A stretch of DNA of 64,000 bases, from positions 12,528 through 76,527 of the forward strand of contig JAILZL010000004.1 of the NCBI GenBank assembly GCA_023512475.1, written 5' to 3'. The translations under genes were made by a program, and so were the position numbers. Below, piece by piece: positions 7,632-60,306 of the stretch. The stretch is from Syntrophobacterales bacterium. GTDB taxonomy: Bacteria; Desulfobacterota; Desulfobaccia; Desulfobaccales; 0-14-0-80-60-11. A model generated the notes under the pieces. That model saw only the letters and a list, made by a program, of their open reading frames with translations. It searched no databases and was not told where the DNA came from. Positions within the stretch are counted from its first letter, which is position 1. Each line of letters begins with the position of its first letter.

Positions 7632-8615
7632 TCACCACCAGGAGCGGGGCAGGCGCACCCTCACCCGCATGCCGTAGACCAGCCGGTGGGGATTGGCCTG
7701 CTCTGCGGCGATTTCCGCCACCAAGGCCCGTTGCCGCCGCAGGTAGTAATCCTGATATTCCGGCGGCAGGGGTTCGGAAGCCGGATAGACCTTCTTGACC
7801 GTGCCCGGAGTGCGGCGGCCGTCGGCGAAGAGGATGGTGGTGGCCTGACCGGGATGGACCCGCTCCCGATCCTTTTCCGCCACGAAGGCTTTGACGAAGA
7901 GGTCATGCGGGTCCACCAGGGTGAGCACCGCCTGCCCCGCCTGCACCACCTCCCCGGGCTGGCGGTTGCGGCTGATGACCACGCCTTCCCGGGGGAGGCG
8001 CAGCTCCGTGACCACCCGGGCGGCGGGCTGCTGAAAGCGGTGGTACAGGTCGGCCAGAAGCTGCCGTTCCTTCTTGAGGACCGTCAGCCGCTGCTTCAGC
8101 CTCCCCACCTCGGCCTCGGCCTCCCGACACTCCAGGTCCAATTTTTTAACATCCCCGTATTTCAGGATTTTTTGCTCCAAAAGCTCCTGGGAGCGGCGCC
8201 GCTCCTGGGCCAGGGCCGCGGCCACCCCGCCCTTGAGACGTATCTCCCGGGCCGTCACCTCCGCGTCCCCGGCCAGGCGGGTCAGGGCCTCCTCAATGCG
8301 GAAGATCATCTCCGGCGGCCAGGTGTCGGCGAGGCGGCGGGTGACATCCACCCGGGCCACCACGGTGCCTGCCGGGACCGTATCCCCCACTTCCACCAGC
8401 ACCTGCTCCAGCCGGCCGGGCTCCTCGCACTGCACCAAAAACTCCCGGCCGTCCACCAGGGCCGGGAGGTCCAGGTAGAGGGCCCGGCGGCCCAGCCACT
8501 CGCCCAGGGCCAGCACCAGGCAGGCCAGCAAGGCCAGATACAGGAACTTACCCCAGGAGCGCCGGGGCGGCTCCGGCTCCCTTTTGTACAGGGGCGGCAA
8601 TGCCGGGGCTTTCAT
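7632..8615 (-). CDS. HlyD-family periplasmic adaptor, last gene of the EPS module
   Basis: 327 aa. N-terminal TM (FLYLALLACLVLALGEWL), a lipoyl-like hairpin (VEVGDTVPAGTVVARVD ... GEVVQAGQAVLTLVD) and a central coiled-coil. Confidence 0.8.
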   Translation of the reverse strand: MKAPALPPLYKREPEPPRRSWGKFLYLALLACLVLALGEWLGRRALYLDLPALVDGREFLVQCEEPGRLEQVLVEVGDTVPAGTVVARVDVTRRLADTWPPEMIFRIEEALTRLAGDAEVTAREIRLKGGVAAALAQERRRSQELLEQKILKYGDVKKLDLECREAEAEVGRLKQRLTVLKKERQLLADLYHRFQQPAARVVTELRLPREGVVISRNRQPGEVVQAGQAVLTLVDPHDLFVKAFVAEKDRERVHPGQATTILFADGRRTPGTVKKVYPASEPLPPEYQDYYLRRQRALVAEIAAEQANPHRLVYGMRVRVRLPRSWW

Positions 8616-38488: not shown

Positions 38489-39064
38489 ATGGAGCACTTT
38501 CTCAGCCCGGCCCTGTCCTGGCTGGCACATCCCGGCCGATTTCTCTTTCCCACCGCCCTCGCCCTGTGGATGGCAGTGGGGGATCTGCGCACCCGGCGCA
38601 TCCCCAACTACCTCACCTTGGGCACGGCCCTGGCGGGGCTGGCGGTGCGCCTCCTCACCGACGGCCTCCCCGGCCTGGCGGACGGCTTTTTGGGCTTGCT
38701 GGTGGGCTTCTGCCTGCTTTTCGGGTTTTACCTGGCGGGCGGCATGGGGGCCGGTGACGTCAAGGCCCTGGCCGCCCTGGGCACCTGGCTGGGTCTGAGA
38801 CTCACCCTGTTCCTCTTTCTGTACATGGCCCTGGCCGGCGGGGTGCTCACCCTGGTTTATCTCTGCTGGCGGGGTCTCCTCCTCGCCAAACTGAAACGCC
38901 TGGGAAGCTGGCTCCTGAGCTGGGTGCTCCTGCGCCCCCACGGCGGCGGCGCCGGCGCGGCCCCGGGCACCGGGCCTGAGGCCGCCACCGGAGAAGGGGT
39001 CCCGTACGGGGTGGCCCTGGCCCTGGGCATGGTCTTCCTGTGCTGGCAGGTCCTCAGCCGGTAG
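38489..39064 (+). CDS. A24-family prepilin peptidase (CpaA/TadV-like)
   Basis: ATG at 38489. Two catalytic-Asp contexts (AVGDLRTRRIPN and GGMGAGDVKALAALG). Polytopic, about 190 aa. Confidence 0.7.
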   Translation: MEHFLSPALSWLAHPGRFLFPTALALWMAVGDLRTRRIPNYLTLGTALAGLAVRLLTDGLPGLADGFLGLLVGFCLLFGFYLAGGMGAGDVKALAALGTWLGLRLTLFLFLYMALAGGVLTLVYLCWRGLLLAKLKRLGSWLLSWVLLRPHGGGAGAAPGTGPEAATGEGVPYGVALALGMVFLCWQVLSR

Positions 39065-39204
39065 CCCGCCGGCCCGCACCCCCCCACCCCTGACCCCGCT
39101 GCCTTTACGTCCCGGACTTGAGACCTCCGGGGTGGCGGGCGCCCTTGGCAGGTGGTGGAAAAAGGTTATTGGTGGAAGAGGCCAGAGGTCACAGACCCCC
39201 CCCC

Positions 39205-39310
39205 CGCACCCCTTACCCAACCCCATAAATGGTATGCGGCTTCACCCAACCAATAAAAGGCCGGCCTCATCCCCTCAGATTCCGGGGAGGGGTTTTTTCA
39301 AGCGCCTGTC
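39205..39310 (+). repeat. Intergenic repeat family, copy A (core plus 3' hairpin/T-tract extension)
   Basis: Core cccaaccccataaatggtatgcggcttcacccaaccaataaaaggccggcctcat (39216-39270). It is followed by CCCCTC-agattccggg-GAGGGG-TTTTTT (39271-39298). Aligns with copies at 45031-45110 and 45821-45925. Confidence 0.8.
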
Positions 39311-39492
39311 CGGCGCGATCCGGATTTTCCTTCTGTTTTTCCACCCTTGCCGCCGACGCGGCGTCGGAGTACAATGCCGGCAGGAGAGGCGGTCCGCTCC
39401 CGGGCCTGTGGGATCCGGGGGACAGGACCGAGTCATCCGCCATCAGGCCGCACGGGCCGCGGCCGCAATGCGGGCCGGAAAGGACAGCCGGT

Positions 39493-40503
39493 ATGCTCAT
39501 CGTCATGGACAAGGATGCCACCCCTGCCCAGATCGAGGCGGTGGTGGCCAAAATTCAAGGGTTGGGGTATGTGGCCCAACCCATCCCCGGGGGCGAGAGG
39601 GTGGCCATCGGCATCCTGCGCAATCCCGGTCCGGTGGATCCCGCCCTGTTTCTGGACATGCCCGGGGTCATTCAGGCCATCCCGGTCTCCAAGCCCTATA
39701 AGCTGGTGAGCCGGGAGATGAAGCGGGCCGACACCCTCATCACCTTTCCCAACGGCCTCACAATCGGCCGGGGACATTTTGTGCTCATTGCCGGCCCCTG
39801 CGCCGTCGAAAGCGAAACCCAGGCCCTGACCATCGCCCACGCCGTGAAGGCGGCCGGGGCGCAGTTCTTCCGGGGCGGCGCCTACAAACCCCGGACCTCC
39901 CCTTACAGCTACCAGGGTCTGGGGGAGCCGGGGCTGAAAATCCTGGCCAAAGTGCGGCAGGAGACGGGCCTCCTCATCGTCACCGAGGCGGTGGACACCG
40001 ACTCCCTGAAGCTGGTGGCGGAATACGCCGACGTGGTGCAGATCGGCGCCCGCAACATGCAGAACTTCTCCCTCCTGCGGCAGGCCGGGCAGGTGGGGAA
40101 ACCGGTGCTCCTGAAGCGGGGCCTGTACGCCACCCTCCAGGAGTGGCTCATGGCGGCGGAGTATCTCATGGCGGAGGGCAACTCCCAGGTGATCCTCTGC
40201 GAGCGGGGCATCCGGGGCATCGGCGAGCACGCCCGCAATCTCCTGGATCTGGCCACCATTCCGGCGGTGCGCCGGGAATCCCACCTCCCCATCCTGGTGG
40301 ATCCCAGCCATGCCGCCGGGCGCCGGGACCTGGTGGCGCCCCTGGCCCGGGCGGCGGTGGCCGCCGGCTGCGACGGCCTCATGGTGGAGGTGCATCATGA
40401 GCCGGAGAAGGCCCTGTCCGACGGCGCCCAGTCCCTTTATCCGGAGCAGTTCGCCGCCCTGACCCGGGACCTGGCGACCCTCAAGCCCGGAGGCTGGGCG
40501 TGA
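39493..40503 (+). CDS. aroF: 3-deoxy-7-phosphoheptulonate (DAHP) synthase, type I-beta with an N-terminal regulatory domain
   Basis: ATG at 39493 (MLIVMDKDATPAQIEAVVAKIQGLGY...). Motifs AGPCAVES, RGGAYKPRTSPYSYQGLG, DPSH. 336 aa. The ORF-track start at 39229 runs through the repeat element. Confidence 0.9.
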   Translation: MLIVMDKDATPAQIEAVVAKIQGLGYVAQPIPGGERVAIGILRNPGPVDPALFLDMPGVIQAIPVSKPYKLVSREMKRADTLITFPNGLTIGRGHFVLIAGPCAVESETQALTIAHAVKAAGAQFFRGGAYKPRTSPYSYQGLGEPGLKILAKVRQETGLLIVTEAVDTDSLKLVAEYADVVQIGARNMQNFSLLRQAGQVGKPVLLKRGLYATLQEWLMAAEYLMAEGNSQVILCERGIRGIGEHARNLLDLATIPAVRRESHLPILVDPSHAAGRRDLVAPLARAAVAAGCDGLMVEVHHEPEKALSDGAQSLYPEQFAALTRDLATLKPGGWA

Positions 40504-41576
40504 GGGAGCTCACCGTCGCCTTGCCGGGCCGGGAGAGCAGCTACCGGGTGCGGCTGGCCTGGGGCCTGCGCCACCGGCTGGCCGCGGAACTGGAGCCCCT
40601 CTCTCTCCCCCGGCGCCTCTTTGTGGTCACCGACCAGACGGTGGCCCGGCTGCATGCAGACCAGGTCCTGGCGGGGCTTAAGGCCGGAGGCTATGACCCC
40701 CATCTCCTCACTGTGCCGCCCGGCGAGAAGAGCAAAAGCTGGCGGCAGGTGACGGCCCTGACCCGGGAGCTTCTGGCCCGGGGCGCGGACCGGACCACCG
40801 CCCTGATGGCCCTGGGGGGCGGCGTGGTGGGGGACCTGACCGGCCTGGTGGCCTCCCTGTTCATGCGGGGCCTGCCCCTCATCCAGGTGCCCACCACCCT
40901 GCTGGCCATGGTGGATGCCAGCATCGGCGGCAAAACCGCCATCAATCTTCCGGAGGCCAAAAACCTCCTGGGCACCTTCCATCAACCCCGGCTGGTGGCC
41001 ATCGACCCGGAATTTCTCCAGACCCTGCCGCCCCGGGAGCGCCGCAACGGCCTGGCGGAGATCCTCAAGGCCGGCTTCATCCGGGAGGCGGAGCTCCTGA
41101 AGCGGGTGGAGAACCTGGGCCCCCGCCTGTTTCAGGACCGGGAGAGCCTTGCGGAGGTGATCTTCCGGGCGGCGGCCATCAAGGCCGGGATCGTGGCCGC
41201 GGATGAGCGGGAGGGGGATGTCCGGCGCCTCCTCAACTTCGGCCACACCCTGGGCCACGCCCTGGAGGCGGCCAGCCGGTATCGCCTGCCCCACGGCCAG
41301 GCGGTGGCCCACGGCATGATTGCGGCCCTTTGCCTCTCCCGGCGGCTGACCGGGCTGTCTGCCGGGGCCTGTGAGGCCGGCGTGCGCCTTATCCGGAACC
41401 TGGGTCTGGCCCGGCGGCCACCCGGAGTTCCCCCGGAGGCGGTGCTGGCCGCCCTGGGCCACGACAAGAAACGCCAAGCCGGGGAGCTGGTCTTCGTGCT
41501 CCTCCGGGACCTGGGCGCGGCGGAGATCGTCCGGGGGGTGCCTCTGGAGCTGGTGGCCGAGGTCGTACCCCGCTGA
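40500..41576 (+). CDS. aroB: 3-dehydroquinate synthase
   Basis: The GTG start overlaps the aroF stop (GTGA). Motifs GGGVVGDLTG, DASIGGKTAIN, NFGHTLGHALE. Confidence 0.9.
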   Translation: MRELTVALPGRESSYRVRLAWGLRHRLAAELEPLSLPRRLFVVTDQTVARLHADQVLAGLKAGGYDPHLLTVPPGEKSKSWRQVTALTRELLARGADRTTALMALGGGVVGDLTGLVASLFMRGLPLIQVPTTLLAMVDASIGGKTAINLPEAKNLLGTFHQPRLVAIDPEFLQTLPPRERRNGLAEILKAGFIREAELLKRVENLGPRLFQDRESLAEVIFRAAAIKAGIVAADEREGDVRRLLNFGHTLGHALEAASRYRLPHGQAVAHGMIAALCLSRRLTGLSAGACEAGVRLIRNLGLARRPPGVPPEAVLAALGHDKKRQAGELVFVLLRDLGAAEIVRGVPLELVAEVVPR

Positions 41577-41592
41577 AGGGGCCAGCCCCCGT

Positions 41593-42822
41593 CTATCTGA
41601 AGCCGATGGCCCCCGTGCCCAGAAGCAGGGCGGCGGCGGCCTTCAGCCCCAGGGGAAGGGCGGCTTCATCCGGATTGAAATCCGGCGCGTGCAGGGCCTG
41701 GCCCCGGGTGCCGGGGGTGCGCACCCCGAGGAAAAAATAAAAGGCTGGCACTTCCTGGGCAAAGTAGGCAAAATCCTCGCTGCCCATGGCCGGCTGGTGG
41801 GCGGTCACCCGCCGGGCCCCCAGGCACTCCTTCAGGATGCGGACCGCCCGCTCGGCCAGGCGGGCGTCATTTTTCAGGATGGGGTAGATGCCCTGGGTGG
41901 CGAGCTCCAGCCGGGCGCCGGTGGCCTTGGCCAGGCCTGCCAGGTGACGGCGGACCGCCGCCAGCACCCGCTCCCGCACCCCGGGGGAGAGAAAGCGCAG
42001 GCTGCCTTCCAACACCACCCTGTCCGCCAGGATATTGAAGCGGTTGCCGCCCGCGATGCGTCCGAAGGTGAGGACAAAGGGCTGCCGGGAGTCCACTTCC
42101 TGGGCGAGGGCGCTTTTCAGCAGCACCAGGGTCTGGGCCGCGGCCAGGATGGGGTCCACGCCTTTGTGCGGGGTGGCGCCGTGGGCCACCTGGCCCGTCA
42201 CTGTCAGGATGAGGTGTTCGGAGCCCGCCATCACCACCTCGGGGCAATAACGCACCTGGCCCACATCCAGGGTGGGGGCCACATGCAGGCCGAAGATGGC
42301 GTCCACCCGGGGATTGTCCAGCACCCCGGCCCGCACCATCCCCAGGGCGCCGCTGTCGGGCCCCTGCGGGGGGCCTTCCTCCGCCGGCTGGAAGAGGAAG
42401 CGGATCTCCCCGGACAGACGGTCCCGGAAGCGGCTGAGGAGGGCGGCCGCGCCCAGGGCGATGGCCAGGTGGAAGTCGTGGCCGCAGGCATGCATCACCC
42501 CGGCGTTCTTCGACCGCCAGGGCACCTCCAGCTCCTCGGTGAGGGGCAGGGCGTCCATGTCCGCCCGCCAGGCCACCGTGCGGCCGGGAGTGGCTCCCAT
42601 CAGCCGCCCCACCACCCCATGGCCGGCGATCCCGGTTTTCACCTCCAGTCCCAGTTTGGTGAGATATGCGGCCACCGCGGCGGCGGTGCGCCGCTCCTGG
42701 TGGGACAGTTCCGGATGCTGGTGGAAATGACGGCGCAGACGGGTGAGCTCTTCTGTAAGCCCCTCGGCAGCCTGGGCCGCCTCGGGCCACCACGGGGGCA
42801 CGATCATCTCTCTTTCCGGCAT
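41593..42822 (-). CDS. M20D-family amidohydrolase (N-acyl-amino-acid amidohydrolase-like)
   Basis: LRRHFHQHPELSHQE, MHACGHDFH, and GSEDFAYF motifs. 409 aa. Confidence 0.8.
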   Translation of the reverse strand: MPEREMIVPPWWPEAAQAAEGLTEELTRLRRHFHQHPELSHQERRTAAAVAAYLTKLGLEVKTGIAGHGVVGRLMGATPGRTVAWRADMDALPLTEELEVPWRSKNAGVMHACGHDFHLAIALGAAALLSRFRDRLSGEIRFLFQPAEEGPPQGPDSGALGMVRAGVLDNPRVDAIFGLHVAPTLDVGQVRYCPEVVMAGSEHLILTVTGQVAHGATPHKGVDPILAAAQTLVLLKSALAQEVDSRQPFVLTFGRIAGGNRFNILADRVVLEGSLRFLSPGVRERVLAAVRRHLAGLAKATGARLELATQGIYPILKNDARLAERAVRILKECLGARRVTAHQPAMGSEDFAYFAQEVPAFYFFLGVRTPGTRGQALHAPDFNPDEAALPLGLKAAAALLLGTGAIGFR

Positions 42823-42897
42823 GGCGTTTCCGGCCTCGGGCCGTCTGCCCGATAGCCTTCCCTCTCCTCTCTGGCGTAAAACGTCCCGGCCTGACCC

Positions 42898-43917
42898 TCA
42901 GGATCCCCGGCAGAGGACCTCGCCCCGCTCCCCCAGGGCCCCCGTGACGGTGAAACGCGGCCCCAAAAACTGCTCAATCACCCAGATATTGGTGAGAAGA
43001 TGGGAGGTCACCGCCTCGGTGGTGAAGCGGGAAGGCCCCCGGGCCGTGGCCAGGTAGAGCACCAGCTGGTCCGCGGCATGGCGGTCCAGGGCGGCGTGTT
43101 GCGCCTCGTAATGCAAGAAGGCGTCCACCGCCTCGTCGGCCACCTGCTCCGCGGGCTTGCCCCGGGCCCCCAGGGCGCTGAAGCCGGCCCCGGGCCCCCA
43201 GAGGAACACCAGGCTGCCCGGGTCCAGGCTGTCGGCGGCCACCTCCTCCACGAGCAACTCCGCGCCCAGGCGCTCCCGCAGGCGCGCGGCCTGACGCCGG
43301 CGCACGTGCTCCGGCAGCCGGCCGGCCGCGGACAGGGCCCGGAGTTCCGGGCGACGGGCGGGGGTCAGGAGCTCTACCGGGGTGAGGCAGGAGACGGGCT
43401 CCACCTCCAGGCGCACCCGCCCCCCGCCCCGAGGATAAAACCCCCAGTGCTCCAGAGTCAGACTCACCCGCGCCCCCAGGCGCTCCAGAAGGGGCACAAA
43501 GACATACTGGAGATAGTGCACCGGGGGGCTCCAGGGGACGTGGGTGCCGCCCTGGATGATCACCGTGCTCCGGCCGGGGGCAAAGAGGAGGGCCGGCAGC
43601 ACCGCCTGGGCCACCAGGCTCACTGAGCCGGCGCTCCCCATGGTTTCGGCCACATCAAAGACATACTGCCCGGCCCGCACCCGCCCGGGGATGAAGGTGA
43701 GATCCCGGCTGTTCAGCTCCGCCCCCCTCACTTCCGCTCCGGAAATGCGGGCCAGGGCGCGCACGGCGGTGAGATGCTGGGCCTTGAGGCCCGGCTTGGG
43801 CCGGCCGGCCCGGATATTCTCGATCCTGACCGCCTCCCCCACCAGGGCGGCCAGGGACAGGGAGGTCCGGACAATCTGTCCGCCTCCCTCGCCGTAAGAC
43901 CCGTCCAGGTGCAGCAT
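42898..43917 (-). CDS. rtcA: RNA 3'-terminal phosphate cyclase
   Basis: MLHLDGSYGEGGGQIVRTSLSLAAL N-terminus and RAGRPKPGLKAQHL (nucleotidylated-His region). 339 aa. Confidence 0.85.
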   Translation of the reverse strand: MLHLDGSYGEGGGQIVRTSLSLAALVGEAVRIENIRAGRPKPGLKAQHLTAVRALARISGAEVRGAELNSRDLTFIPGRVRAGQYVFDVAETMGSAGSVSLVAQAVLPALLFAPGRSTVIIQGGTHVPWSPPVHYLQYVFVPLLERLGARVSLTLEHWGFYPRGGGRVRLEVEPVSCLTPVELLTPARRPELRALSAAGRLPEHVRRRQAARLRERLGAELLVEEVAADSLDPGSLVFLWGPGAGFSALGARGKPAEQVADEAVDAFLHYEAQHAALDRHAADQLVLYLATARGPSRFTTEAVTSHLLTNIWVIEQFLGPRFTVTGALGERGEVLCRGS

Positions 43918-44010
43918 AGGTAGAGGAAACCCCCGCCGCCCCGACCCGGCCGCCTTTGCCGGCCTTTTTGGGGGGCCGGGCGTTTTCCGGTTAACGAACG
44001 GCTGCGGACC

Positions 44011-44223
44011 TCAATCTTCCAGGATGAAGATGACCTCCATTTTCACCCGGAAGGTGTTGATCTTGTCGTCTTTCACGGAGATGCGCTGCTCCACGATCCT
44101 GAGGCCGGTGATGTTGCGCAGGGTTTTGGTGGCCCGTTCAAAGCCCACCTTGACGGCGTCCTCGAAACTCTCCGGTGATTCGGCGATAATGTGGGTAACC
44201 CGGGCGACATTCTTGCTGGACAT
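44011..44223 (-). CDS. Dodecin-family flavin-binding protein
   Basis: ATG at 44223 preceded by AGGAGGGA. 70 aa. ...IAESPESFEDAVKVGFERATKTLRNITGLRIVEQ... matches the dodecin pattern. Confidence 0.75.
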   Translation of the reverse strand: MSSKNVARVTHIIAESPESFEDAVKVGFERATKTLRNITGLRIVEQRISVKDDKINTFRVKMEVIFILED

Positions 44224-44480
44224 GGCATCCCTCCTGGCTGGATTGTCGGCCTCAGGCGGCCTGGCGCCCGCCAAGGCTCATCTGTCCAATAACATAAGAC
44301 CCTCAGGGGGGGATGCAAGGAAAAAGCGGCCCCCGGGGGATTTTCCCCTGTTCTGGGGGGACTTTCACCCCGCGTCCCCAAGCCATCGGCCCCGGCCTCA
44401 TCTTTTTCCCCGCCGGGGACGATGTGAGTTTCATCACCCAAACCCGGCAGGACCGGTCGCGCCGGTCCCCAGGAGGACCT

Positions 44481-44903
44481 ATGGGAAAAAAGATCCGGGC
44501 CCACTTTCTGGCCATCTGTCTGCTGGCGCTGTGCGGGGCCACCGCGGCCACGGCCGGGCCGCCGCTGGACCCCCGGCTGACCCCGCAGTGGCACAACGTC
44601 ACCACCGTCACCGAGGTGGCCTACGCCCCTAATCTGCCGGTGGATGTCTTCCGCTATCAGGGGCGCTTTTACTGCTACGACGGCCGCTGGTATCAGAGCC
44701 AGGTCTGGGGCGGACCCTGGCGGGTGATTCCGGAGCCCCCCGCGGTTCTCCGGCAGGTGGACGCGGCGTATTTCAAAAAGGTGCCCCCGGGCTGGAGCCG
44801 GGGCCGCAAGGTGGGCTGGCAGGGGGGGTCCATGCCGCCGGGCCAGGCCAGGAAACAGCAGGGCGGTCTGCCTCCCGGGCAAGCCAAGAAGCGGGGCTTT
44901 TAG
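44481..44903 (+). CDS. Small secreted hypothetical protein with C-terminal PPGxxxK repeats
   Basis: ATG at 44481 preceded by AGGAGGA. Signal peptide FLAICLLALCGATAATA. C-terminal repeats VPPGWSRGRK / MPPGQARK / LPPGQAKK. Confidence 0.55.
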   Translation: MGKKIRAHFLAICLLALCGATAATAGPPLDPRLTPQWHNVTTVTEVAYAPNLPVDVFRYQGRFYCYDGRWYQSQVWGGPWRVIPEPPAVLRQVDAAYFKKVPPGWSRGRKVGWQGGSMPPGQARKQQGGLPPGQAKKRGF

Positions 44904-45030
44904 GGGAGTTTAAGGGAGCCGGGCACAGCGGCCAGGCCCAGCAGGAGCAGAGGATGGCCCCATGGACTCCTCTGAGCCCCTTCTTTTAGAGGTTATTTGG
45001 GGAAGGGGGCCAGTAATCACAGGCCCTTTG

Positions 45031-45110
45031 CCCCTCCCCCGACCCTCCTCCCCCAACCCCAGAAAGGGGATGTGGCTTCGCCCAACCGGCAAAGTCGGCC
45101 AACCTCCTCG
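45031..45110 (+). repeat. Intergenic repeat family, copy B (core only)
   Basis: cccaaccccagaaaggggatgtggcttcgcccaaccggcaaagtcggccaacctcct (45052-45108), preceded by a C-rich tract. It lacks the 3' hairpin/T-tract seen in copies A and C. Confidence 0.75.
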
Positions 45111-45189
45111 GGTGGCACAGGGGCACGGGTCCGGGCCGGCCGATCAGCCCCGTCATAGCCCGCCGGCCTTTTCCCGGCCCCGCCCCTCC

Positions 45190-45774
45190 TCAGCGGAAAA
45201 AAGGCAGGGAGACCAAAAGGAAGAAGCCGTTGACGGAAAAGGCCCCCCCTAAGATCGCGGTGGCGATGGCAAAGTAATACATGCGAGGGGATTGGGAAAT
45301 AATGGCGATGCTGGCCAGCACAATGGCGATCTGCAGCAGCACCTCGGCATAATCGAAGGACGGGTCCTTTTTCTGGTTCAGGTCCCGCTCCGCTTCAAAC
45401 TGCCGGGCATCTTTCTCGATCTCCTTTTTCTCCTGGTTGAAGCGTTGGGCCTCCTGGAGAAGGTGGGAGCGGGCCTCCTGGATTTTCTGCTGTCCCGAGG
45501 GGTTGCCGCCCGCGGGGCCGGCCGCCATGGCCTCCAGGAGAAACGCCTGGCTGCGATACAGGTGTTCCCGGATGACCTTGGCCTGGTAGTAGGCCCACAT
45601 GTTGGAGGCCTGCTGCTGCGCCAGAAGCATCTCTTTCATGGCGTTACTGCCACCCAGCGAGGTGATGGCCAGCAAGACCGCAAAGATGGCGGTGGTCAGG
45701 GCCACCCGCCGGGTGAAGGCATCCTTGCGGGCCTCCTCCAGCTCCTCCACTTCCGGCAATTCGATCTCAGCCAT
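45190..45774 (-). CDS. DUF4337-like membrane protein
   Basis: 194 aa. An N-terminal acidic segment, then a TM (VALTTAIFAVLLAITSLGG), then NMWAYYQAKVIREHLY, and C-terminal TM segments. Domain assignment is from memory of the family pattern. Confidence 0.55.
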   Translation of the reverse strand: MAEIELPEVEELEEARKDAFTRRVALTTAIFAVLLAITSLGGSNAMKEMLLAQQQASNMWAYYQAKVIREHLYRSQAFLLEAMAAGPAGGNPSGQQKIQEARSHLLQEAQRFNQEKKEIEKDARQFEAERDLNQKKDPSFDYAEVLLQIAIVLASIAIISQSPRMYYFAIATAILGGAFSVNGFFLLVSLPFFR

Positions 45775-45820
45775 ATGCTTCCCTATCAGATTGTTGACAA
45801 GGTTATTCGGGGATCACAAA

Positions 45821-45925
45821 CCTCTGCCCCCTCCCCCAACCCCTTAAATGGGATGTGGCTTCGCCCAACCGGCAAAAGCGGCCGGCCTCATTTCATCGGG
45901 GAGGAGTGTTTTTCAACCGCCTGCG
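45821..45925 (+). repeat. Intergenic repeat family, copy C (core plus 3' extension)
   Basis: cccaaccccttaaatgggatgtggcttcgcccaaccggcaaaagcggccggcctcat (45835-45891), then ttcatcggggaggagtgtttttcaaccgcctg. The latter parallels the copy-A extension (ggggaggggttttttcaagcgcctg). Confidence 0.8.
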
Positions 45926-46113
45926 TCCTCCTTTCCTTCGACGGTGATCCGGGCTCCATCGCTCAGGGCTCCGTCCAGGCCGATGACATGGCCCCATTCG
46001 TCCCGCACGGTCAGCCCCCGGCCGTCGGGAGGAAAACCGGCGGCCACCAACGCGTGGCGCACCCGCATGCCCGGGGCCAGCTCCACCGGTCGGTCGTTGA
46101 CATACACCCGCAT
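45913..46113 (-). CDS. Small beta-grasp (ThiS/MoaD-like) protein ending in Gly-Gly
   Basis: 66 aa: MRVYVNDRPVELAPGMRVRHALVAAG...LSDGARITVEGKEDAGG. The length, the (M)xVxVN start, the DG-x-hydrophobic strand and the C-terminal GG fit sulfur-carrier proteins. The Shine-Dalgarno sequence is weak. Confidence 0.4.
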   Translation of the reverse strand: MRVYVNDRPVELAPGMRVRHALVAAGFPPDGRGLTVRDEWGHVIGLDGALSDGARITVEGKEDAGG

Positions 46114-46258
46114 GGTCCTTCACCCTGACGTGGGTCAATTGCCCCGAAGAAATGGGCCACCCCCAACGGCGCCTCGGGCACCGGCGTTTTCCCTGACTGT
46201 TCCGGGCCGTTCCCAGGGGCGCCGGCGGGGCCGCAGCCTGCCGGAGGCCGCCACCGCG

Positions 46259-54995: not shown

Positions 54996-55057
54996 GCCCG
55001 GGGAAGGCGGAGGGCGCGGTTTCCACAAGGCCCTAAGGGGTTTGTCCGGGGGCCCAC

Positions 55058-55223
55058 ACGGGTTCTGAGGAGGGACCGGCGCGAGGAAGGCGCAGGCGTT
55101 CCGGTTTCCGGGGATCCGCCCAGGATCCCCCGGGGCCCCTACAGGTGATCCGGAGGGGCTGGCGCGAGGAAGGCGCAGGCGCCCATCCGGGGGAGCCGGC
55201 TTCCCGGGCCCCAGGACGACAGT
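55058..55223 (+). repeat. Degenerate ~83-nt tandem duplication containing a perfect 21-nt direct repeat
   Basis: ggcgcgaggaaggcgcaggcg at 55078-55098 and 55161-55181, with flanks partly alignable. Unit 1 also carries the perfect palindrome GGGGATCC-gccca-GGATCCCC. Confidence 0.7.
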
Positions 55224-60184: not shown

Positions 60185-60306
60185 CCCTCACCTCAGGAAC
60201 CGGGGAAGGGGTGCGGCGAGGGTAAGGGGCTCCGACCGCCGGCCTCCTCCCCCAGGGCGCCGCCCGGACTGTCTTGGGGCGCCTGACCTCCCGGCCCCGG
60301 CGGACA

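Follow-up and report, generated by a model that had tools for sequence, protein, structure and literature searches.

Three copies of a C-rich intergenic repeat, here termed A, B, and C, lie within 6.7 kilobases (kb) of a 64-kb stretch of contig JAILZL010000004.1 from a Syntrophobacterales bacterium (hereafter, the window), one upstream of the gene aroF and the other two on either side of a gene encoding a DUF4337 protein. Our analysis suggests that these repeats are probably copies of a small, non-coding, non-autonomous insertion element resembling miniature inverted-repeat transposable elements (MITEs). Classical MITEs carry a target-site duplication, and since none was found here, we describe the element as MITE-like rather than as a classical MITE: the family is new, atypical in lacking the duplication, and hence outside the classical definition. 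We know of no described mobile repeats in this lineage, and these copies would add a small mobile-element family to an uncultured branch of the Thermodesulfobacteriota (Desulfobaccales/Syntrophobacterales).

Core, boundaries, and inverted ends of the repeat

The 36-nucleotide (nt) core pattern CCCAACCCCNNAAANGGNATGNGGCTTCNCCCAACC, whose C-rich sequence reads CCCAACCCC..GGCTTC.CCCAACC, matched exactly at positions 39216 (A), 45052 (B), and 45835 (C), all on the + strand. These are the cores that the initial annotation had reported, and its further statement that B and C are nearly identical is borne out by repeat finding in the window, which recovered the same family and gave 87% identity between the two copies over 63 nt. 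No other match to the core pattern occurred in the 64-kb window, even with 3 mismatches, nor any in 100 dinucleotide-preserving shuffles (0 matches); the chance expectation for three same-strand copies is 0. All three copies are intergenic, as had been described: A sits upstream of aroF, between a prepilin-peptidase (A24) gene and the aroF promoter, while B and C bracket the DUF4337 gene, with B between that gene and a convergent gene of 140 amino acids (aa) and C between it and a small open reading frame (ORF).

The repeat had been taken to be ~57 nt long; the core within that length is real, but the full unit is far longer, at 137–160 nt. Similarity between paralogous copies extends from CAG..GTKGAAAA-AGGTTATT, ~65 nt (A) or ~48 nt (C) 5' of the core, to CGCCTG, which sets the unit limits at 39149–39308 for A (160 nt) and 45787–45923 for C (137 nt), with 159 nt for C' (primes denote the counterparts in a close strain, contigs L057, L058, and L064). 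Imperfect terminal inverted repeats bound the unit (CAGGYGGTKGAAAAA ... TTTTTCAASCGCCTG), which consists, in order along the + strand, of the left inverted repeat (CAGGYGGTKGAAAA in A), the motif GGTTATT, a G+C-rich hairpin, the C-rich core, a second hairpin, and the right inverted repeat TTTTTCAASCGCCTG. The tail common to A and C (...GGCCGGCCTCAT...TTTTTCAASCGCCTG) was correctly recognized by the initial annotation, and its T-tract portion is the right inverted repeat.

Copy A, on the + strand, is a full-length unit, and its similarity to C and C' stops just where its inverted ends do. Its left terminal inverted repeat (CAGGTGGTGGAAAAA, 39149–39163), in which the right-end motif TTTTTCAASCGCCTG recurs inverted precisely at the left limit, is complementary at 12 of 15 positions to the right end; it is followed by the core (39216–39251, CCCAACCCC...GGCTTCACCCAACC, an exact pattern match), a terminator-like tail hairpin (39263–39294, with T6 at 39293–39298), and the right terminal inverted repeat (TTTTTCAAGCGCCTG, 39294–39308). 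Copy C, likewise on the + strand and thus antisense to the operon formed by the small ORF and the DUF4337 gene, was delimited by in-silico excision, with its left end (CAGATTGTTGACAA) at 45787–45800, core at 45835–45870, and right end (TTTTTCAACCGCCTG) at 45909–45923.

A MITE is expected to end exactly in terminal inverted repeats, and such repeats were found in A and C', where repeat finding independently detected inverted arms at the limits (L057 8122–8136 and 8268–8282 for C', 80% complementary). Measured exactly at the similarity limits, complementarity is highest in A (12/15), followed by C' (11/15) and C (10/15); with 12 nt of slack per end, A and C' each reach 12/15, a value attained by few random window segments of equal length (27 of 5000 in the test of A and 36 of 5000 in that of C'). 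Three matches to the end pattern CAGNNNGTKGAMAA occur in the window, against 0.08 expected, and all are at element ends.

Copy B (+ strand, 44989–45130 by alignment, the right limit being approximate; core 45052–45087) has the GGTTATT motif, the first hairpin, and the core, and it lacks both ends: neither TTTTTCAASCGCCTG nor CAG..GAAAA is present in it. In the close strain, B' retains a left end (GTTGATGAAAAAGG, L064 6993–7007), separated by 22 nt from the stop of the 140-aa gene (region L064 6976–7007). In the window, the interval from that stop to B (44897–44989) instead holds 86 unrelated bases flanked by two CTTTTAG heptamers.

At 137–160 nt, the units fall within the size range of MITEs (<~500 bp) and are non-coding, in that no start-to-stop ORF is common to the copies. 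This agrees with the earlier statement that no consistent ORF is shared; the 15-codon minus-strand ORF previously pointed out in C (MRPAAFAGWAKPHPI, then a stop) is present and is not kept in A or B. A coding function was considered and rejected. All copies leave two frames open, one on the + strand (..PNPxNGMWLRPTGK..) and one on the - strand (..GEATSHLxGWG..), but only within long antisense ORFs; the copies have neither a start nor a ribosome-binding site in common, and in A the frame is shifted beyond K.

Filled and empty sites in related genomes

We compared the window with five syntenic relatives (L018/L019, L059, L020–22, L023–25, and L026; DUF4337 77–91% identical), a further relative (L065; aroF 96% identical), and the close strain (DUF4337 97%, aroF 99% identical). 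The window DUF4337 protein is 100% identical to one from a metagenome-assembled genome (MAG) labelled Syntrophobacterales, and its nearest named relatives are Desulfobaccales MAGs. Profile searches (nhmmer) with the element matched only the window, a contig of the same strain (L001), and the close strain, in which A', B', and C' are all present. The five relatives (L018, L059, L020, L023, L026) retain gene-for-gene synteny around the region, yet searches of them with the element returned nothing significant (best E about 0.03 in L059, to short C-rich stretches), and alignments revealed no counterpart of the element at sites A, B, or C. L065 also had no nhmmer match; there, the small ORF overlaps DUF4337 and a different insert occupies site A. 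Related genomes thus include both filled and empty sites, a pattern typical of MITEs.

Site C provides the sharpest view of an insertion. In four of the five relatives, a small ORF of 69–70 aa overlaps the DUF4337 start (ATGGCTGA), and in the fifth (L026) a 66-aa small ORF ends 5 nt before DUF4337. The window carries 137 extra bases at this site and the close strain 159. When positions 45787–45923 are deleted from the window, or 8123–8281 from L057, an ORF of 69 aa is regained, with its TGA overlapping the DUF4337 ATG via ATGGCTGA, which is the length and arrangement of those four relatives; the restored ORFs end in ...DDREAYG (window) and ...DAREAYG (L057), compared with ...SYG, ...PYG, ...DHG, and ...THG in the relatives. 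Because exact excision restores the ancestral ORF, the boundaries are fixed to the base and leave no room for a target-site duplication, which indicates that copy C is a precise insertion without one.

The site A spacer is ~150 nt long in distant relatives, and this region 5' of the aroF promoter has the look of a hot spot for insertions; at site B, the relatives' spacers do not align with the element. Three close-strain contigs from two data sets stop inside B', approaching it from both sides (ends at L064 7028, L057 9079, and L058 2941), a pattern that fits either repeated k-mers shared with C' or a hard G+C hairpin.

Divergence of the copies between strains

Genes differ by 1.4–2.8% between the window and the close strain, and third codon positions by 3.9% (aroF) to 6.7% (DUF4337). 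Against this background, C is separated from C' by mismatches at 9 of 135 aligned positions (6.7%) and by 3 indels, two of which are 12-nt deletions in the window copy that remove both arms of the first hairpin. For B and B', 24 of 121 positions are mismatched, and 9 core nucleotides (CCAACCGGC) are missing from B'. Since divergence in both pairs is at or above the synonymous rate, B and C are not under purifying selection. The hairpin deletions in C (45812–45830, compared with L057 8205–8262) are symmetrical, with 12 nt lost per arm and the loop TCACAAACC kept, and the remaining indels between copies are likewise multiples of three (9, 12, 12, 9).

The copies may also have influenced one another. 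In the small CCCC-NNAAAN-GGG hairpin, the loop (window 45061–45066 and 45844–45849; L057) reads AG in B and C' and TT in C and B', so that variants agree between paralogues and not between orthologues, which hints at sequence exchange between copies. Such exchange would fit a history without a transposase, in which ancestral intergenic DNA (possibly the terminator region between the 140-aa gene and DUF4337) was duplicated locally and passed by illegitimate recombination or gene conversion into two nearby spacers, leaving functionless copies. The clustering of all copies within 6.7 kb in one orientation and the lack of a target-site duplication are in keeping with this history, as is a loosely similar G/C hairpin in the site B spacer of L018 (GGGGAGAGGGG..GGCCTTTG..CCTCTCCCC). 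We nonetheless consider local duplication quite unlikely: at two sites we find one unit bounded precisely by the same inverted ends, an outcome not expected of illegitimate recombination, and nhmmer detected no significant similarity to the relatives' site B spacers.

Several observations weigh against the MITE-like interpretation. A target-site duplication of 1–10 nt, proposed as a check by the initial annotation, was looked for and found neither at site C, where excision leaves no spare bases, nor visibly at A, so that the duplication flanking each copy of a MITE is missing. Taken alone, the inverted repeat of window copy C is not significant, as 1065 of 5000 random segments also attain its 10/15. 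Searches for a parent element or transposase with matching ends were negative: the end pattern matched nowhere else in the window or among 59 loci. The known copies number just three, share one orientation, and are clustered in 6.7 kb, with none in the remaining 57 kb of the window. Finally, copy A shows 0 substitutions in 159 positions between the strains and a single indel in a C-run (L064 1204–1371), where ~6 changes would be expected at a neutral rate of ~4%.

The invariance of A contrasts with its flanks, of which the left spacer differs by 10% and the right by 2.7% (window 39146–39317 vs. L064), and it is suggestive of something that pure decay does not explain. Selection, homogenization, or chance could be the cause; mismatch-free runs equally long occur elsewhere in the 7-kb comparison.

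Tests for small RNA and regulatory functions

The initial annotation had offered three possibilities for the repeat: small RNAs with their own terminator, a REP/MITE-like mobile repeat, or a protein-binding site. Our data support the MITE-like option, while the small-RNA option was unsupported in the tests run and the binding site is disfavored. As a small-RNA family, the copies would be paralogous, trans-acting transcripts of the + strand that carry their own terminators and pair through C-rich single-stranded motifs (CCCAACCCC, CCUCC) with G-rich ribosome-binding sites; in that case, either the inverted ends would be a coincidence or a mobile element would carry the RNA, so that this function and mobility are not mutually exclusive. 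The core is the best-conserved block among the paralogues, and copy A is invariant between strains while its flanks vary, both of which are consistent with a functional RNA.

The hairpin followed by T6 that had been described in A is confirmed by a fold of the tail (-15.6 kcal/mol, then U6), and although its stability is not above that of shuffles (z = -0.35), it is plausible as a predicted intrinsic terminator; a simple terminator scan omitted it since the scan's loop limit is 8 nt and the A loop is 9 nt. Of the two hairpin/T-tract tails that had been described, only that of A is convincing as a terminator; the tail hairpin of C is weaker (-10.5 kcal/mol) and no more stable than shuffles. B lacks both a T-tract after its tail and a terminator. 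As for the first hairpin, C' alone has a strong one (-40 kcal/mol, z = -3.6); that of B is moderate and that of A degenerate, and most of it has been deleted from C.

A simple scan detected no sigma-70-like promoter in or 5' of any copy, the nearest being the aroF promoter 3' of A; a -35-like TTGGCA just 5' of A reads GTGGCA in the close strain, within an upstream spacer that is 10% diverged, and a sigma-54-type promoter spacing was checked by eye and rejected. Rfam 15 yielded no family match for the element, with nothing at gathering score in the whole window and nothing relevant at E <= 10 in 38900–46200. The compensatory changes that the initial annotation proposed to look for were absent: across five sequences, the RNAalifold covariation term was positive, i.e., penalizing, on both strands (+5.84 on + and +3.14 on -), with many pairs broken, so that these sequences do not display a conserved structure maintained by compensatory change.

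Multi-copy C-rich small RNAs with anti-Shine-Dalgarno motifs are known, the cuckoo/CcsR RNAs of alphaproteobacteria being an example: these have 2–4 adjacent hairpins with CCUCCUCCC in each loop, many compensatory changes, and their own or a shared promoter (PMC4615179). Like them, the repeats described here are multi-copy and C-rich, contain anti-Shine-Dalgarno-like strings (B contains CCUCCUCCCCC), and end in a terminator-like hairpin. Unlike them, they carry the C-rich motifs outside the hairpin loops in predicted folds, do not keep CCUCC in the core of A, and show neither covariation nor a promoter. Considering also that B and C evolve at or above the synonymous rate, that B' has lost part of the core, and that C lies antisense inside an operon that is intact in relatives, we regard a family of trans-acting small RNAs as unlikely.

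A role as an operator is extremely improbable. The heptamer CCCAACC is directly repeated, 29 nt apart, and conserved in A, B, and C, and this pair could be imagined as the DNA binding site of a regulator co-regulating aroF and DUF4337. However, all relatives that share these genes and the aroF promoter are without it, one heptamer is gone from B', B is situated between the ends of two genes, and the conserved unit greatly exceeds an operator in size. An integron attC site was also considered and rejected, as the two RYYYAAC-like heptamers are direct rather than inverted and DUF4337 occupies the same place in relatives without the repeats.

Comparison with known repeats and mobile elements

Among described elements, the closest parallels are short, non-coding, and bounded by inverted ends. 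Correia elements (CREE) of Neisseria have 26-bp inverted repeats, a TA target duplication, and an IHF site, and occur in hundreds of copies. The element described here resembles them in size (~100–160 nt), in being non-coding with terminal inverted repeats, in its intergenic scatter, including inside operons, and in its presence or absence between relatives; Correia elements can also bring terminator-like or processing hairpins to neighboring genes, as A may do here. It differs from them in having imperfect inverted repeats of ~15 nt, no duplication, three known copies, and no sequence similarity.

ERIC is one long imperfect palindrome, and BOX consists of modules A, B, and C with a variable number of B. 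Like ERIC/IRU and the pneumococcal BOX/RUP repeats, our copies are modular, hairpin-forming units of roughly 100–150 nt in transcribed intergenic regions and undergo internal module deletions, though phyla and sequences differ. REP, BIME, and REPIN sequences, in which an imperfect palindrome of 20–40 nt makes up the whole unit and is mobilized by a RAYT, are a poorer match to a unit of 137–160 nt with a non-palindromic 36-nt core.

Mobility through a single-strand transposon of the IS200/IS605 or REP/RAYT type, with subterminal hairpins, no duplication, and strand-specific insertion that would explain the single orientation, merits separate consideration. Beyond the lack of a target-site duplication and the location of all copies on one strand, hairpins lie near both ends, and the first hairpin of C' ends 9 nt from GGTTATT and the left end. 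Yet these families lack terminal inverted repeats, which the unit has, and the palindrome-associated elements derived from IS200/IS605 have a conserved short target sequence next to the left end, whereas the flanks of A, C, and C' share no tetra- or pentanucleotide at either end. Moreover, the unit is long and its core non-palindromic compared with REPs of 20–40 nt, and 3 of 3 copies would share one orientation by chance with a probability of 1 in 4. We consider this route very unlikely.

A possible lead for the parent of the MITE-like element comes from the ISAs1 family, whose terminal repeats are 14–22 bp long, start with CAGGG, and are associated with a 10-bp duplication (PMC11946415). The ends described here are similar in length (~15 nt) and start with CAGGC or CAGGT (right end and left end of A) or CAGAT (left end of C). 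The match to CAGGG is 3–4 of 5 bases, however, there is no 10-bp duplication, and no ISAs1-type transposase was seen, so that the copies lack what would mark them as ISAs1 derivatives; ISAs1-type ends are a lead and nothing more.

Proposed mobility and effects on neighboring genes

We propose that the inverted ends were recognized by a transposase encoded elsewhere in the genome, which carried copies to three or more intergenic sites in a span of 6.7 kb. Judging from the distribution among relatives, these insertions would have occurred after the split from those with aroF/DUF4337 91–96% identical and before the split from the 97–99% identical strain. Decay followed insertion: both ends disappeared from B, the two arms of the first hairpin from C, and 9 core nucleotides from B'.

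Copy C lies in the 8-nt overlap region of the translationally coupled small ORF/DUF4337 pair and uncoupled DUF4337 from the small ORF by supplying a new stop codon. With the element in place, the small protein ends in ...KEDAGG, with the TGA inside the right inverted repeat and its last residues rewritten, and DUF4337 keeps its own ribosome-binding site (AGGGAAG), which is outside the element. Copy C is thus a clean natural case of an element splitting a translationally coupled gene pair with neither gene destroyed.

With copy A, a hairpin and T6 would have come to separate the aroF promoter from the peptidase gene, at a position where they may stop read-through transcripts, and such a terminator role could explain the invariance of A between strains. 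If A is indeed under selection, it would represent a mobile element recruited as a terminator or insulator ahead of an aromatic amino-acid operon. In a fuller version of this scenario, the family would be a duplication-free mobile element bounded by inverted repeats and carrying a hairpin/T-tract module, possibly a C-rich regulatory RNA, with copy A domesticated; we view this combination as doubtful. More generally, these repeats call for caution in annotation: C-rich, terminator-tailed intergenic repeats cannot be called small RNAs from sequence alone.

Distribution beyond the locus

Collections were scanned with the pattern CCCAACC-N11-17-GGCTTCNCCCAACC. Among 185,579 species-representative genomes, there was no copy of the element and 16 pattern matches, which were single chance matches in unrelated phyla. 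Metagenome (30 pattern matches) and viral (4) collections likewise contained no copy, though the metagenome scan missed the L001 and L064 contigs, which have exact matches, and is therefore uninformative on copy number. By nhmmer and inspection, the pattern matches in these collections were chance or unrelated sequences, including cyanobacterial CCCCAAC-type repeats and a phage coding region. Searches of plasmids and phages with blastn gave no match to the element, and a six-frame peptide search with concatenated translations of A, B, and C, aimed at spurious ORF calls, had nothing that scored among the 8000 candidates covered. As far as these searches indicate, the element family is narrow and apparently confined to one lineage of uncultured sulfate-reducer relatives.

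Neighboring genes and additional features

The gene 5' of copy A encodes a prepilin peptidase (A24; 38489–39064, + strand, the start following a 191-aa call in L064), and the gene 3' of it is aroF, encoding a DAHP synthase (39493–40503, + strand, PF00793). Between A and aroF, 3' of and outside the element, lies the promoter-like site TTGCCG-17-TACAAT (39347–39375, + strand); the aroF promoter and leader are conserved throughout the relatives, including those without the element. In L018 (16400–16500), L059, and L065, the peptidase/aroF spacer contains a different, AT-rich insert with 7-nt periodic arrays (GTCCAAA x4.6 and AGTTCAA x4.3).

At the other end of the region, copy B lies 3' of the 140-aa gene (44481–44903, + strand), which is convergent with the DUF4337 gene (45190–45774, - strand, Pfam PF14235) bracketed by B and C. 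The small conserved ORF beyond C (45913–46113, - strand; MRVYVNDRPVELAPGMRVRHAL...) encodes 66 aa here and has no Pfam match, and the element contributes its final 11 nt, TGA stop included.

Other features of the window are less specific to the repeats. No tRNA or tmRNA was found in the whole window. Canonical minus-strand G-quadruplex motifs occur in A (39196–39224) and B (45024–45060); they are not distinctive, as the window has 34 canonical motifs (13 on + and 21 on -), and a G-quadruplex interpretation was rejected. Weak nhmmer matches in L059 and at window positions 60202–60254 were judged to be generic G/C-rich hairpins rather than element copies. G/C-rich hairpins of the form GGGGAGAGGG...CCCTCTCCCC recur in spacers of the clade (L059 11240–11350 and 19860–19925; window 60190–60260), where the element's first hairpin is what nhmmer weakly matches to them. 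The window also contains two intergenic direct repeats of 53 nt (55046–55098 and 55129–55181; CCGGGGGCCC..GGCGCGAGGAAGGCGCAGGCG), which lie 83 nt apart and are 81% identical.

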